Virus record (IMG/VR): IMGVR_UViG_3300045303_000221
Location: 23,893-87,892 of that record
DNA: 64,000 nucleotides
From: a virus
Reading direction: 5' to 3' (one strand)
Shown: one piece after another, positions 50,175 through 56,789 of the stretch
How positions within the stretch are numbered: position 1 is the first letter of the stretch
Layout of the letters: each line of letters begins with the position of its first letter
The notes under the pieces: model-generated
What the model saw: the letters and a program-made list of their open reading frames with translations, nothing else
Databases searched by the model: none
What the model was told of the DNA's origin: nothing
Translations under genes and position numbers: made by a program

Positions 50175-51079
50175 CGGCGTTCCGCGCGGAGCTACACCCG
50201 AGGGACCGACGGGGCCGGTGGGAGTCGGTGCCGGGCGTGCGGCTGACGAAGGGCGGGAAGATTCGCCTGCGGCTCCAGATCGGGTCGGAGCAGCACAAGA
50301 AGCTGATCGCTCGCGGGCACACGATCGCGACGCCGACCTTGAAGCCGCCGCCGAAGCGGATGACGGTGAGCGGCGACGAGGCTCGCCAGCGGGCGCTGAC
50401 GCGGCGCGGCTACACGGCGCGCGTGGGCGCGTCGAAGCCTGCGCTCTCGGTGTACCCGTACACCGGCCCGGCGGGGACGCACACGGTGGACGGCGTGACG
50501 TACTGGGAGGACGAGGATCGGGCGCGCGACGTGGCGACGAGTATGCCGCGCTCCAGGGTGGAGAAGCGGCCGAGGGGCTGGGTGATCATCCTGGCGCACG
50601 GGAAGCCGCACAACGTGACGCGGCTGCGGCCGATGAAGGGCAACACGTGGGCCGACCCGTTCGGCGACATTGACGAGTTCGGCCGCACGCGACCACGGGT
50701 GCGCGAGGCGCGGCAGCGGCGGGTGGCGGCGAAGCTGGAGCGGATCGTGCTGGCCGACATCGAGGACGAGGCGGTCGCGATCCTGGCGGCGGAGCGGTTC
50801 CTGGTGGAGGCGGCGGACAAGACGCCGGAGCCGTTCTCCAAGAGCAAGACATCGAACTGGGTGGCGCGCGCCGGTGGGCTGCCGAACTACATCCAGCACA
50901 TCGCGCACGACCTCGTGGAAAAGCGCGGCAAGTCCGAGTCGCAGGCTATCCAGATGGCGATCGGCATCGTCAAGCGGTGGTGCCGGGGCGGCGGCGACGT
51001 GAAGCCGGACACACGCGCGGCGGCGTGCAAGGCCGTCGCGGAGTGGACGGCCCTGAAGGCGAAGGCCCATGCCTCGTAG
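50171..51079 (+). CDS. HPR-tagged putative head protein
   Basis: GTGA overlap; [14 protein letters not shown]; C-terminal NWV..AGGLP.YI..IA domain after LVEA. Confidence 0.75.
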   Translation: MTAFRAELHPRDRRGRWESVPGVRLTKGGKIRLRLQIGSEQHKKLIARGHTIATPTLKPPPKRMTVSGDEARQRALTRRGYTARVGASKPALSVYPYTGPAGTHTVDGVTYWEDEDRARDVATSMPRSRVEKRPRGWVIILAHGKPHNVTRLRPMKGNTWADPFGDIDEFGRTRPRVREARQRRVAAKLERIVLADIEDEAVAILAAERFLVEAADKTPEPFSKSKTSNWVARAGGLPNYIQHIAHDLVEKRGKSESQAIQMAIGIVKRWCRGGGDVKPDTRAAACKAVAEWTALKAKAHAS

Positions 51080-51758
51080 CCCTGCCTGGGACGCATCCGA
51101 GCAGCGCGTGCGGTCGGTGGCGCTGCATCACCACGTGGTCGTCAGCGAGGGGCTGCTGGGGCACTTCACGGAGCGGCTGCATCCCCGGTCGCACGGCAAG
51201 TTCGCGGCGAAGCCGGGCGCGTTGAAGGGTCGCGCCGGGAAGGCCGCCGCCAAGCGGGGGGCGGAGGCGCGGGCGTCGCATTACGAGCGGCTGAAGACGC
51301 CGGAGGGGCAGGAGCACCTGTCGAAGATCAGGGGCCGGATGTCGCACGGCGAGTGGCTGGAGCATCCGGGGTCGGCGGCCGAGCGGGCGATGTCGCACTA
51401 CGCCCCGCGGACGGCGCACGCCACGTCGCACGAGCAGCAGGTGTCCGACGCGAAGCACGCGGCGGCGAAGGCGGAGCGCGACCGGATCAAGGCGGAGGAC
51501 GAGGCGTACAAGCGGGGTGTGGCGCAGGCGCGGATGGACTGGCGCAAGTCGCTGACGCCGAAGGAGCGCCACCTGCACGATGCGTTCGATGCGGCACACA
51601 AGGCGTGGGCCGCGAAGATGACGTTCGACTACGACCCGCCGGAGGAGACGCGGGCGATGCGGAAGGCGCGGGCGGCGCTGGACGCGCACGAGGCGAAACA
51701 CGGCAAGAAGCGGCCGAAGTTCCCGGAGCAGCCGTACCGGCATGTGAGCGAGCCGTAG
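51069..51758 (+). CDS. HPR-tagged basic helical protein
   Basis: WDASEQRVRSV...VSEG...FTERLHPRSHGKF. Confidence 0.75.
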   Translation: MPRSPAWDASEQRVRSVALHHHVVVSEGLLGHFTERLHPRSHGKFAAKPGALKGRAGKAAAKRGAEARASHYERLKTPEGQEHLSKIRGRMSHGEWLEHPGSAAERAMSHYAPRTAHATSHEQQVSDAKHAAAKAERDRIKAEDEAYKRGVAQARMDWRKSLTPKERHLHDAFDAAHKAWAAKMTFDYDPPEETRAMRKARAALDAHEAKHGKKRPKFPEQPYRHVSEP

Positions 51759-51762
51759 CGGC

Positions 51763-51867
51763 ATGATCTCGGCGTGGGACTGGCTGGCGGCGGGCCTGTT
51801 CCTGGTGGCGGTGTCGGCGCTGATCGCGACAGTCGTGACGTTCGTCGCGTGGTTGATCTGGGGCTGA
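51763..51867 (+). CDS. small single-TM protein
   Basis: 34 aa, hydrophobic. Confidence 0.45.
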   Translation: MISAWDWLAAGLFLVAVSALIATVVTFVAWLIWG

Positions 51868-51885
51868 GGCGGGGACCACCTGGCC

Positions 51886-54570: not shown

Positions 54571-54722
54571 ACCTTCAGCCGTGCCCGCACTGCGCGACCT
54601 GCGGGCTGGGGGCGAATGCCCTCGCCGCGCATATCGAGCGGCGGCACACGGGGCCGCCTGCGCCGTACGCCGTGATCCTGCCGGGCGAGCCTCGGGCGAC
54701 GATCGTGTATCCCGGGAAGTGA
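54567..54722 (+). CDS. C2H2 zinc-finger microprotein (51 aa)
   Basis: GTGA overlap; C-x2-C-x12-H-x4-H (CPHC...HIERRH); absent from ORF track. Confidence 0.6.
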   Translation: MNLQPCPHCATCGLGANALAAHIERRHTGPPAPYAVILPGEPRATIVYPGK

Positions 54723-54777
54723 CAGTCAGCGGGATGCGCAGTGCGCGGAGCAGGTGCGTGCGGTGTAGCATCCGGGC

Positions 54778-56256
54778 ATGGAGACGCTGGTGGAGCGCGA
54801 CGTTTCGCAGGACGAGCGGGACAAGCTCGCGGACAAGGGCCACGCGATGGCCGACGGCTCGTTCCCGATCAAGCACACCGGCGACCTGAAGAACGCGGTC
54901 AAGGCGCACGGCCGGGCGAAGGACAAGGCGGCTGCGAAGGCGCATATCTGCAAGCGGGCGAAGGCATTGGGGGCTGAGCACATGCTGCCGGACGAGTGGA
55001 AGCTGTCGGAGGCGTGGGATGCGTCGGCGCAGCGGGCGCGCGCGGTCGAGGGGCACCTGGCGCACATGGCGACCGACCCGGGCTACGACCCGCTGCGAGA
55101 GGCCGCCGGGTACACGGCGACGCTGCATCCTCGGGACCGGCTCGGGCGGTGGCGAGAGGTTCCCGGGTCGGCGCTGGCGCACGTCGGAGCGCAGGCTGCT
55201 CGGGCGGACTTCAGCCGGTCGCGCTCGCGCGGCGCGGGCATCGTTCCCCCGGATGCGCGGCGCGAGGCGGCGATCCGGGCGACGGTGCTGCGGCGTGATG
55301 CTCAGAGTCCGGCTGAGAAGGTGCGGGTGAACCGCGGCAAGTCGTTCGGTCACGCTCGGCCTCGGCCGCCGGAGCCTGCTGCGAGTGCACCGGCGCACGC
55401 GCCGACGGCGATGATGCGGAACATGGACGCGCTGGCGCATGACCAGTTCGCGGCGCTGACGGTGGCGAGCAAGGCGCGTGCGCGCGGCGGGCCGCGGTGG
55501 CAGTTCACGGACAACCGCGGCGTGAAGAAGGAGGGGTACGTGGAGAAGGTGTCGGATCGTGGCGGCACCGACATCACGTACTTCTTCCGCGACGACGACG
55601 ACGTGCTGTCGGTCGTGAGCGGTCCGCACGTGGTGCGGACGAAGGCGGGGCCGCTGCGTGATCGGAAGCCGGACGTGTGGGGTGACATGCACGGGCGCGG
55701 CGTGTCGATCACGGTGCAGTCGCACGGGTCGAAGGGGCCGGAGCACTTCGCGGCGCAGGCGGCGAGGCACCGCGCGACGGAGAAGGCGCTGCGCGACCGC
55801 GGCGAGCACGCGGAGGCGAAGGGCTACGGCGAGATGGCGGCGAACTACGAGGCGCGCGCCGGTGGCATGTCCCTGGAAGACCTGACCCGCCAGCACGAGT
55901 CGATGCCGAAGATCAGCAAGCGCGAGGCGAACGCCGAGGTGCGCTCGATGGTCGCCGATCGGGCGGCCCGGCTCGCGGACGAGACGCTGCCGTCGTCGCA
56001 GTCGCCCGAGCACCTGAAGACGCTCTCGCTGTCGCAACTGGCGAGCGTGATCCGGCGCGACTGGGGCGGCAAGGTCAACTACGCGGCCAAGCCGTACCTC
56101 GATGCGCTCGGGTCGCTGGAGCAGATCGAGGACAACTACGGGGCCGATCCCGGCCGGATGATCGTGGCCTACTTCCTGTCGAACGCGACCTCGTGGCGGG
56201 GGCCGACGGCGAAGGCCGTGAAGGCCGAACTGAAGCGCCGGTCGGGCCGTCGGTGA
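54778..56256 (+). CDS. HPR-tagged multidomain putative head protein (DUF6582-like N-terminus)
   Basis: AMADGSFPI...DLKNAV...HICKRAKALG...LPDEW; LREA...LHPRDRLGRW; C-terminal IRRDW..VNYAAKPYLDA...YFLSNA.SWRG..AK.VK.ELK; leaderless TAGCAT-N6-ATG. Confidence 0.8.
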   Translation: METLVERDVSQDERDKLADKGHAMADGSFPIKHTGDLKNAVKAHGRAKDKAAAKAHICKRAKALGAEHMLPDEWKLSEAWDASAQRARAVEGHLAHMATDPGYDPLREAAGYTATLHPRDRLGRWREVPGSALAHVGAQAARADFSRSRSRGAGIVPPDARREAAIRATVLRRDAQSPAEKVRVNRGKSFGHARPRPPEPAASAPAHAPTAMMRNMDALAHDQFAALTVASKARARGGPRWQFTDNRGVKKEGYVEKVSDRGGTDITYFFRDDDDVLSVVSGPHVVRTKAGPLRDRKPDVWGDMHGRGVSITVQSHGSKGPEHFAAQAARHRATEKALRDRGEHAEAKGYGEMAANYEARAGGMSLEDLTRQHESMPKISKREANAEVRSMVADRAARLADETLPSSQSPEHLKTLSLSQLASVIRRDWGGKVNYAAKPYLDALGSLEQIEDNYGADPGRMIVAYFLSNATSWRGPTAKAVKAELKRRSGRR

Positions 56257-56789
56257 CCTGGGTCGGCTCCGAGCAGCGGGAGCGCGCTGTCGGTCGTCAC
56301 CTGGCCGTGCTGCGAGAGGCGAGCTACGCGGAGCTTCTGCACCCGCGTGACCGGGTGGGGCGGTGGCGGATCAAGCTCGGGGTGGCCGGGAAGAAGATGG
56401 GTCACGCGCTGGACAAGGCGCTGGGCGAGCCGACGCAGATGCAGCGCGGGCCGGTGACGCTGCACGACCTCGGGATCCCGGTGACGAATCTGGCGCAGCG
56501 GCCGGGGAAGATCAAGGCGTCGCTGCGGCGTGACCAGCGGTTCTTCGCGCCGCACTTCCGGATCGAGACGACGGGGGTGGACGAGCAGGGCCTGGCGACG
56601 CACTTCCCGGAGCCGATGCACGTGACGCCGGATGCGGACGTGGAGTCGTTCGCTCGCGAGGAGCGCGACAAGGTGAAGGCGAAGGGCATGGCGGTGTACC
56701 AGCGGATCCATCACATTCGCGGGAAGGGGCCGGGCGAGCAGTCGGTCGTGCATGAGCAGGGGGCGCGGCCCCGCGCGTACCGAGGCTGA
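56253..56789 (+). CDS. HPR-tagged protein
   Basis: GTGA overlap; WVGSEQRERAV...LREASYAELLHPRDRVGRW. Confidence 0.75.
   Translation: MTWVGSEQRERAVGRHLAVLREASYAELLHPRDRVGRWRIKLGVAGKKMGHALDKALGEPTQMQRGPVTLHDLGIPVTNLAQRPGKIKASLRRDQRFFAPHFRIETTGVDEQGLATHFPEPMHVTPDADVESFAREERDKVKAKGMAVYQRIHHIRGKGPGEQSVVHEQGARPRAYRG

Follow-up and report, generated by a model that had tools for sequence, protein, structure and literature searches.

A portable leader of HPR-tagged proteins in an uncultured actinophage-like phage as a candidate propeptide for a T4-like head protease

The last 64 kb of the IMG/VR record IMGVR_UViG_3300045303_000221 (87,892 bases, 70% G+C, 74% complete according to CheckV), which comes from an uncultured, high-GC, actinophage-like phage of ~88 kb or more, were analyzed in this work (positions 23,893–87,892 of the record, 64,000 nucleotides, hereafter the window). 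Four of its genes, whose products are otherwise unrelated, encode a short leader that contains a conserved Trp and is placed shortly before a second conserved element, the HPR tag. With a probability that we put at roughly 0.55, this leader is a short helical propeptide, which a T4-like head protease encoded by the phage itself removes at a phi-x-E↓(A/G) site (phi stands for a hydrophobic residue and the arrow for the predicted scissile bond). On its N-terminal side, the leader would directly follow either the initiator Met or another phi-x-E↓ site, and it would end at phi-x-E↓(A/G), where a head protease of the gp21 type would cut inside the prohead; the leader would thereby be released and the cargo would then begin with A/G-(x)-aromatic-x3-LHPR-x3-GRW, i.e., the HPR tag. 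The leader would probably serve to offer the cut site to the protease or the scaffold core, to which it may in addition recruit the cargo, by analogy with the capsid targeting sequence (CTS) of T4. The occurrence of cleavage, the identity of the cutting enzyme, the packaging of these proteins and the binding partner of the leader are what we infer from sequences and models; cleavage at phi-x-E↓(A/G) is well supported, though indirectly, by a gp21-fold protease, the enrichment of such sites in the scaffold, a site at the capsid protein N-terminus and the position of one gene boundary.

Searching all six reading frames of the window with W-x-x-S-[EA]-x-R-x-[RC]-x-V gave exactly four matches (at 18255, 51087, 55015, and 56259), all of them on the plus strand, within real genes and 12–25 residues before a strict HPR tag, whose His is encoded at 18327, 51180, 55126, and 56340, respectively. 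The amino acid composition predicts 0.06 matches, and 300 residue shuffles gave 0.06 on average and two at most; the corresponding P value is post hoc, because the regular expression had been derived from these very sequences. A leader HMM (18 sequences) scored the four copies at 25–30 bits and the next-best string of the genome at 6 bits, and a search of the whole 87.9-kb record revealed no further copy in its first 23.9 kb. Every leader is followed by phi-x-E-[AG] (LAE↓A, VSE↓G, LRE↓A, and LRE↓A). The regular expression, the HMM and all four copies therefore bear out the original prediction, which described, in four genes, this motif preceding an E↓A or E↓G site and an HPR tag. Its word leader suits the three N-terminal copies (W at residue 3 or 7) and passes over the internal position of the fourth (W80 of the 54778 gene), which lies behind a 78-residue domain.

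In gene 18249–19844, the predicted N-terminal propeptide has 19 residues (MGWEDSEARRCAVERLLAE↓A; 18249–18305, plus strand; core 18255–18287; found by the regular expression, the HMM with 25.0 bits, and alignment) and is followed by the HPR tag ADFNPGLHPHDRRGRF (18306–18353, plus strand), which would become the new N-terminus after the cut. The predicted propeptide of gene 51069–51758, with 27 residues (MPRSPAWDASEQRVRSVALHHHVVVSE↓G; 51069–51149, plus strand; core 51087–51119; 26.8 bits), is kept in the homologous proteins P0272, P0050, and P0114, and precedes the tag GLLGHFTERLHPRSHGKF (51150–51203, plus strand). The internal leader of gene 54778–56256 (AWDASAQRARAVEGHLAHMATDPGYDPLRE↓A; 55012–55101, plus strand; core 55015–55047; 25.6 bits) has phi-x-E↓A on both sides and leads to the tag AAGYTATLHPRDRLGRW (55102–55152, plus strand). 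Finally, gene 56253–56789, whose GTG start overlaps the stop of the preceding gene and whose homologue P0003 shares the start position, encodes a predicted propeptide of 22 residues (M/V-TWVGSEQRERAVGRHLAVLRE↓A; 56253–56318, plus strand; core 56259–56291; 30.3 bits) and the tag ASYAELLHPRDRVGRW (56319–56366, plus strand). The same residues are often encoded by different codons (e.g., six of eight between the copies at 51087 and 55015), and therefore selection acts on the peptide and not on the DNA. An RNA- or DNA-level signal was ruled out by these synonymous differences and by the lack of any Rfam match.

The cassette is also present outside this genome. A profile search with the four leader-plus-tag segments against 1.84 billion cluster representatives (E ≤ 1e-3) matched 218 proteins, most of them with the tag only; the leader was found on ~15 metagenomic proteins (14 by the profile search and P0272), 13 of which have W at residue 3–6. 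Examples are P0034, with the junction MAWAESEQRARAVERHLAGLRLSE↓GVFNKLLHPR, and P0093, a minimal version (MSWETSEQRARAVE↓AYTERLHPR). The consensus of the cassette reads M-x-W-x-x-S-E-Q-R-x-R-A-V-x-R-H-L ... phi-x-E↓(A/G) ... aromatic-x3-LHPR-x3-GRW. In an alignment of 16 sequences, W3, S6, H30, P31, and G36 are invariant, and E7, R9, A12, V13, R32, and E22 are conserved in at least 90%, E22 being the Glu that the original prediction had placed directly before the proposed cut (P1). The spacing between leader and tag ranges from 7 to 37 residues. Beyond the tag, the cargos fall into at least nine families without mutual blastp similarity (E 1e-3), so the cassette is portable, and, as in T4, the same peptide stands on unrelated cargos. 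Likewise of the T4 type is the N-terminal position of the peptide, observed for three of the four window copies and 13 of the ~15 outside, the others following an upstream phi-x-E↓ site. The proposed order of leader, cut site and HPR tag was hence recovered not only in the window, but also on unrelated cargos elsewhere.

The candidate enzyme is the product of gene 61123–62466 (plus strand, 447 residues), which we regard, based on an AlphaFold2 model, structural alignment and PHROG, as a head protease fused to the scaffold. HMM libraries named no protease in the record at standard thresholds, and no Pfam family was assigned to this protein. It has more than 300 metagenomic homologues, many of them on contigs of 100–134 kb, and in an alignment of 35 homologues H61, S128, E175, and E278 are invariant. 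In the model, an alpha/beta fold makes up the N-terminal domain, and long acidic helices make up the remainder. In an all-against-representatives structural search with VIA-align, T4 gp21 (5jbl_A) was the only match with Z ≥ 8 (residues 9–163; Z 8.7, rmsd 3.5 Å, 129 aligned residues), and the protease of the varicella-zoster herpesvirus (VZV), which has the same fold, gave Z 5.0; Foldseek found nothing in the PDB for the protease model, and phrog_15531 (head maturation protease) matched the protein weakly (E 0.0019). A T4-type pairing of a protease of the gp21/herpesvirus fold with a scaffold core is thus predicted by the model.

The gp21-fold proteases of T4, phiKZ, 201phi2-1, and SPN3US all cleave after Glu, and the T4 scaffold gp22 is heavily cut (PMC5694885); in SPN3US, N-terminal propeptides of 20 and 24 residues are removed (PMC10052503). 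Candidate sites were counted in all proteins of the window and compared with composition-matched shuffles. The string [LVIM]-x-E-[AGS] occurs 6–12 residues before the tag His in 10 of 15 tags versus a background of 7% (P 6e-9), and a looser version in two more. The protease-scaffold itself contains 11 phi-x-E-[AG] sites, most of them in the acidic helical part, versus a shuffle mean of 2.3 (none of 5000 shuffles reached 11), and the sites at E175 (LME↓A) and E278 (LQE↓A) are the ones invariant in the 35 homologues. Seven such sites were found in the portal versus 2.5 in shuffles (P 0.011). From these indirect lines we infer phi-x-E↓(A/G) as the specificity of this protease.

A candidate maturation site is also present in the major capsid protein, the N-terminal 27 residues of which end with LQE↓ADSRADF (62961–63041, plus strand). 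In the capsid proteins of related loci, [LI]-x-E-A-D-S-[KR]-A-D-F is located at about residue 27–45 in 35 of 38 cases, and a variant of it in the other three. The string EADSRADF also precedes the tag in P0003, and the L-x-E-A-D-S site of the capsid protein is a candidate for the maturation site that the cargo junctions imitate, as far as the sequences suggest.

The fourth line of support comes from the polyvalent giant protein of 3915 residues (38427–50174, plus strand), in which Pfam PG_binding_1, LPD1, PolyA_pol (poly(A)-polymerase/CCA-type), and GNAT domains were recognized, together with HExxH modules. It contains seven internal HPR tags; T-x-x-P/S-W-W with acidic residues stands before four of them, and phi-x-E↓A before most. 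The W of the leader aligns with the second W of the T-x-x-P-W-W-(D/E) junction, and the leader may be the standalone-gene version of this inter-module junction (T-x-x-P-W-W-acidic ... phi-x-E↓A ... tag). The TGA of the giant gene overlaps the GTG start of the next gene at 50171 (GTGA; Shine-Dalgarno sequence GGAGAGG 8 nt upstream), and the 50171 protein begins directly with a bare HPR tag. When this region (50124–50221, plus strand, comprising the giant-protein C-terminus and the start of gene 50171) is set against ...SEQRERAVGRHLAVLRE↓ASYAELLHPR, the stop/start falls exactly at the predicted scissile bond (the E↓A position). Judging from this alignment, translation at the 50171 boundary would do what proteolysis is proposed to do at the other junctions, and a gene would have been split here, or two genes fused, at a processing site. 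The degenerate copy of the leader with which the giant protein had been said to end is present (50124–50153), and it was not detected by the leader HMM, for which reason the resemblance must be considered weak. As a separate observation, the giant protein itself starts with MEPHDDLSE↓AAGG (38427–38460), i.e., with phi-x-E↓A nine residues in, which is about the length of a T4 CTS.

The HExxH modules raise the question of whether it is they, instead of the head protease, that cut the junctions, or whether the cutting takes place in the host once the proteins have been ejected. Several of these modules directly follow tags of the giant protein and give weak Pfam peptidase matches, and autoprocessing of polyvalent proteins by such domains was proposed by Iyer et al. 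(PMC5512222). Such cutting leaves unexplained why the scaffold and portal are enriched in phi-x-E-[AG] and why the capsid site is conserved, and no link to a giant protein of this kind can be drawn for the standalone leader proteins of other metagenomes; we consider this explanation very improbable.

Several points weigh against removal of the leader by the head protease. The resemblance to gp21 is one of fold and was obtained with a predicted model (mean pLDDT 72) of a protein that no Pfam family recognizes. In a helical scaffold rich in Glu and Ala, x-E-A may be favoured to a degree for which shuffling of residues does not correct, so that compositional or helical bias is a possible source of the site statistics, and the conserved phi-x-E-A could be part of a structural tag and not a scissile bond. 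Furthermore, an amphipathic leader helix was ruled out, since the hydrophobic moments are no higher than those of shuffles. In the closest relative with available sequence (L119, i.e., IMGVR_UViG_3300045120_000498, protease-scaffold 61% identical), the leader precedes a domain with the signature DGSYPI and lies ~95 residues from the tag, directly before phi-x-E↓A. Last, proteins that are tagged and leaderless exist in the same genome, namely the 50171 protein, the zeta-kinase protein (34429), a HicA protein (17789, minus strand), and the giant protein (38427), so that the leader is carried by four of at least nine tagged proteins. A T4-type rule by which all packaged internal proteins carry the leader does not apply here.

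An arrangement without any cutting was also considered, in which the leader, phi-x-E-A and the tag form a stable N-terminal helix-hairpin adaptor that binds a partner such as the scaffold, the portal, a host factor or DNA. In its favour, all 45 residues of the cassette are conserved together, and the AlphaFold2 model of the 56253 protein has, at residues 7–22, a single helix (pLDDT 84–86), which is the most confident part of the N-terminal half and stops at E22, followed in the tag region by a short hairpin-like stretch, or small beta bridge, of lower confidence. Such an adaptor is nevertheless hard to reconcile with a leader-tag spacing of 7–37 residues and with whole domains that can intervene, and it gives no role to the gene boundary, the enrichment of sites in the scaffold or the Glu specificity of the fold; we therefore regard it as unlikely. 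A WXG100/ESX secretion signal, with its W-x-G turn between two helices and C-terminal Y-x-x-x-D/E, was likewise rejected for the helix, as G at W+2 was found in only six of 18 leaders and the W stands at the extreme N-terminus before one helix.

The arrangement in L119 is informative also with respect to what the leader accompanies. There, the homologue of gene 54778 begins with MGWQGSEQQRRAVAANMAE↓AEF..., and because the leader abuts phi-x-E↓A and is distant from the tag, it is tied to cut sites rather than to the tag. The internal leaders are themselves preceded by phi-x-E↓ (LSE↓AW in gene 54778 and in P0069, TQE↓SSW in P0103), and therefore every leader would begin at a real or a newly made N-terminus. 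By this sequence comparison, the leader travels with cut sites and new N-termini and not with the HPR tag as such. In P0273, a leader-like module end is fused to a cut site and a tag. In all, leader-like strings take three kinds of position in L119 (3609–6607), namely N-terminally before the DGSYPI domain, internally (WKQSMQRTQAVERHLHVV), and at the C-terminus of the upstream gene (AWHHRQRAVQRNLFDPTG...E, followed by the stop).

With module ends of this kind in L119 and P0273, a degenerate copy at the end of the giant protein, and the leader W aligned with the P-W-W junction, one could regard the leader as a functionless vestige, in which the end of an upstream module has persisted since the modules were separated into individual genes. 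W, S-E-Q-R, and R-A-V are, however, kept in the 16 sequences, which are otherwise 23–37% identical to the first one and mostly unalignable, and the synonymous codon changes show purifying selection, which makes a vestige quite unlikely.

The question of targeting is a separate one. The original prediction saw in the leader a cleavable head-targeting propeptide; the cleavable character stands on the indirect evidence given above, and part of the evidence speaks against targeting by the leader itself. A leader that alone acts as a true capsid targeting signal in the T4 sense, with the HPR tag reserved for retention, ejection or a step in the host, is possible, and clearly less probable than the propeptide. 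It has the anatomy of the T4 CTS, being N-terminal, short, present on unrelated cargos, and followed by a Glu site of a gp21-fold protease (PMC3012670, PMC5694885), and its restriction to one lineage is expected if it co-evolves with one scaffold. Against it stand the tagged proteins of the same phage without a leader (at least four, the giant protein among them), the internal position of one copy together with the L119 copy that precedes another domain, and the occurrence of leader-like copies in L119 only, among 41 same-family loci.

A further difficulty for targeting by the leader lies in gene 54778, in which a competing candidate exists. The N-terminal 78-residue DGSFPI domain of its product (...KGHAMADGSFPIKHTGDLKNAVKAHGRAK...; 54778–55011, plus strand) ends with LSE↓A, its DNA matches a gene of Gordonia phage ChisanaKitsune, that of the capsid maturation protease, at the 3' end (blastn), and it matches phrog_80 (head maturation protease) at positions 535–584 of 607, i.e., at the C-terminal end (E 3.6e-4). 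The same domain precedes the leader in P0069 and P0103, where W is located at residue 80–82. By its resemblance to a protease C-terminus, the domain is a candidate for the targeting element of this protein, and it may have been taken over by the cargo for docking in the capsid interior. A leader that serves as a docking helix for the protease or the scaffold fits the observed distribution at least as well as a targeting signal does. A combination of two address labels, in which the removable leader would serve scaffold entry or docking and the retained HPR tag would serve DNA retention, ordered ejection or action in the host, seems to us rather doubtful.

The leader proved to be rare. Related loci were collected with the 35-sequence protease alignment, which yielded 41 loci with a protease-scaffold 41–61% identical to that of the window; searches with the 54778 protein alone or with a single protease sequence gave no relatives. 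Within these related phages, the proposed motif search succeeded for L119 and failed for the other 40 of 41, so that the W..SEQR-type leader is present in one of the 41 loci. Tags of the related protease-family phages are again preceded by phi-x-E↓(A/G/S/I/V), and a basic helix of the type EF.RARARE.VLRARL.E is often found before the phi-x-E↓ site. In more distant loci (L129, L131, L142, L146, L160–L162), a different pre-tag helix, L..A[IV].ARKAA..G.EF.RA.ARE.[VL]LRA[RK]L.E↓, was observed inside multi-module proteins.

Broader searches point in the same direction. The leader DNA pattern was found in IMG/VR nowhere beyond this record, except for one out-of-frame chance match, and the strict leader-gap-tag pattern gave in JGI metagenome contigs only two chance matches, in housekeeping genes. 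The tblastn search of 50,697 cultured phage records with the 47-residue cassette returned nothing at E ≤ 1. In GTDB, represented by one genome for each of 185,579 prokaryotic species, the leader-plus-tag unit was not found; 107 matches to the bare leader pattern were obtained, none of them followed by a tag and several located in PAS-type sensor proteins. A PAS-domain N-terminal cap (the look-alike W-x-E-S-E-Q-R-F-R-A-V) was considered and rejected, the GTDB matches being tagless chance look-alikes of the bare 11-mer. In the literature, no mention of the HPR tag or the leader was found, tag strings matching unrelated papers only, and the MuF-toxin paper mentions neither cleavage nor the motif. 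Based on these sequence searches, the leader appears to be a rare, lineage-specific addition to the HPR-tag system, and for this reason its general importance is limited.

In kind, although not in sequence, the leader system would be a variant of a theme known from the T4 CTS and from giant-phage propeptides. The T4 CTS of the internal proteins IPI–III and Alt is removed by the gp21 prohead protease (review PMC3012670; see also Mullaney and Black 1996, as cited in PMC5694885 and PMC10052503). In both systems, a short N-terminal peptide that ends at hydrophobic-x-Glu stands on diverse cargos, which include enzymes aimed at the host, and a protease, here with a predicted gp21 fold, and a scaffold are encoded. 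There is no sequence similarity between the two peptides, and the leader is longer (~19–27 residues versus ~10), has one internal copy, is confined to a part of the tagged proteins (four of at least nine), and would leave after the cut a retained HPR tag, which is absent in T4. The propeptides of giant phages (e.g., SPN3US gp245 and phiKZ gp175; PMC10052503, PMC5694885) are cut at A/S/G-x-E by gp21-like proteases, and would share with the present system the Glu specificity, a length of 20–24 residues on some substrates, multi-site scaffold-like regions, and self-processing of the protease. They differ in that no shared motif has been reported among them, and the present phage, which is actinophage-like, has a different host range, a protease and scaffold joined in one protein, and a hydrophobic P3 instead of a small one. 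With the polyvalent proteins described by Iyer, Burroughs, Anand, de Souza, and Aravind in 2017 (PMC5512222), the giant protein has in common LPD1, peptidoglycan-binding, nucleotidyltransferase, GNAT, and HExxH modules, and it conforms to their type in its size, in its combination of LPD with effector domains, and in its occurrence in a portal-terminase phage. That paper proposes autoprocessing by a metallopeptidase, and its passages retrieved with terms for cleavage, linkers and packaging mention no HPR tag, phi-x-E junction or leader.

What the present system adds to this theme is a lineage-specific leader and a gp21-fold protease as a testable enzyme-substrate pair. If the order of leader, cut site and tag is true, the mature ends of all head-carried effectors in the lineage could be predicted from sequence, including those of the HicA RNase, the zeta kinase, and the 3915-residue polyvalent protein. 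Foreign proteins could then also be loaded into actinophage-type capsids by means of the cassette, much as the CTS is used with T4, and a widespread and apparently undescribed HPR tag would be linked to a specific processing enzyme, the gp21-fold protease. Should the two-label combination be true, it would amount to a two-step import/export code for phage-delivered effectors, readable from sequence alone.

As for the genomic setting, the window encodes a gpA-type large terminase (4843–6648; Pfam), a portal (26303–28303; PHROG), next after which a large protein is encoded, and the HPR-tagged, leaderless zeta-toxin-domain protein (34429–36762; Pfam). The giant polyvalent gene is placed between the portal and capsid genes, and a translationally coupled run of the genes 50171, 51069, 54778, and 56253 lies 3' of it, followed by lysis-like genes. 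A cement protein gene separates the protease-scaffold gene from that of the major capsid protein (Pfam Phage_capsid_4), which starts at 62961 on the plus strand and runs off the record end. Pfam assigned no family to any of the four leader proteins, and the only PHROG match among them was phrog_13953 (function unknown), to the C-terminal part of the 54778 protein.

Two further tagged proteins deserve a short description. The C-terminal ~50 residues of the 50171 protein (50927–51074) match, at the DNA level, the 5' end of genes for large post-MuF proteins of Streptomyces phages. The conserved stretch of this type (...NWVARAGGLPNYIQHIAHDLVEKRGKSESQAIQMAIGIVKRW..., ~70 residues) is present, for example, in Araceli gp9 (annotated as an ADP-ribosyltransferase), JackieB, and Henoccus, in proteins without the HPR tag. 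The HicA protein (17789–18205, minus strand; Pfam HicA_toxin, E 3e-16) has the N-terminal extension MDFWDRVALHESRGVSLAVALRAARIME↓ARPPSVRWDEALHRRNRIGEF, which lacks a SEQR leader; close to its start there is a Trp, and it further contains phi-x-E↓A and a tag of divergent sequence.

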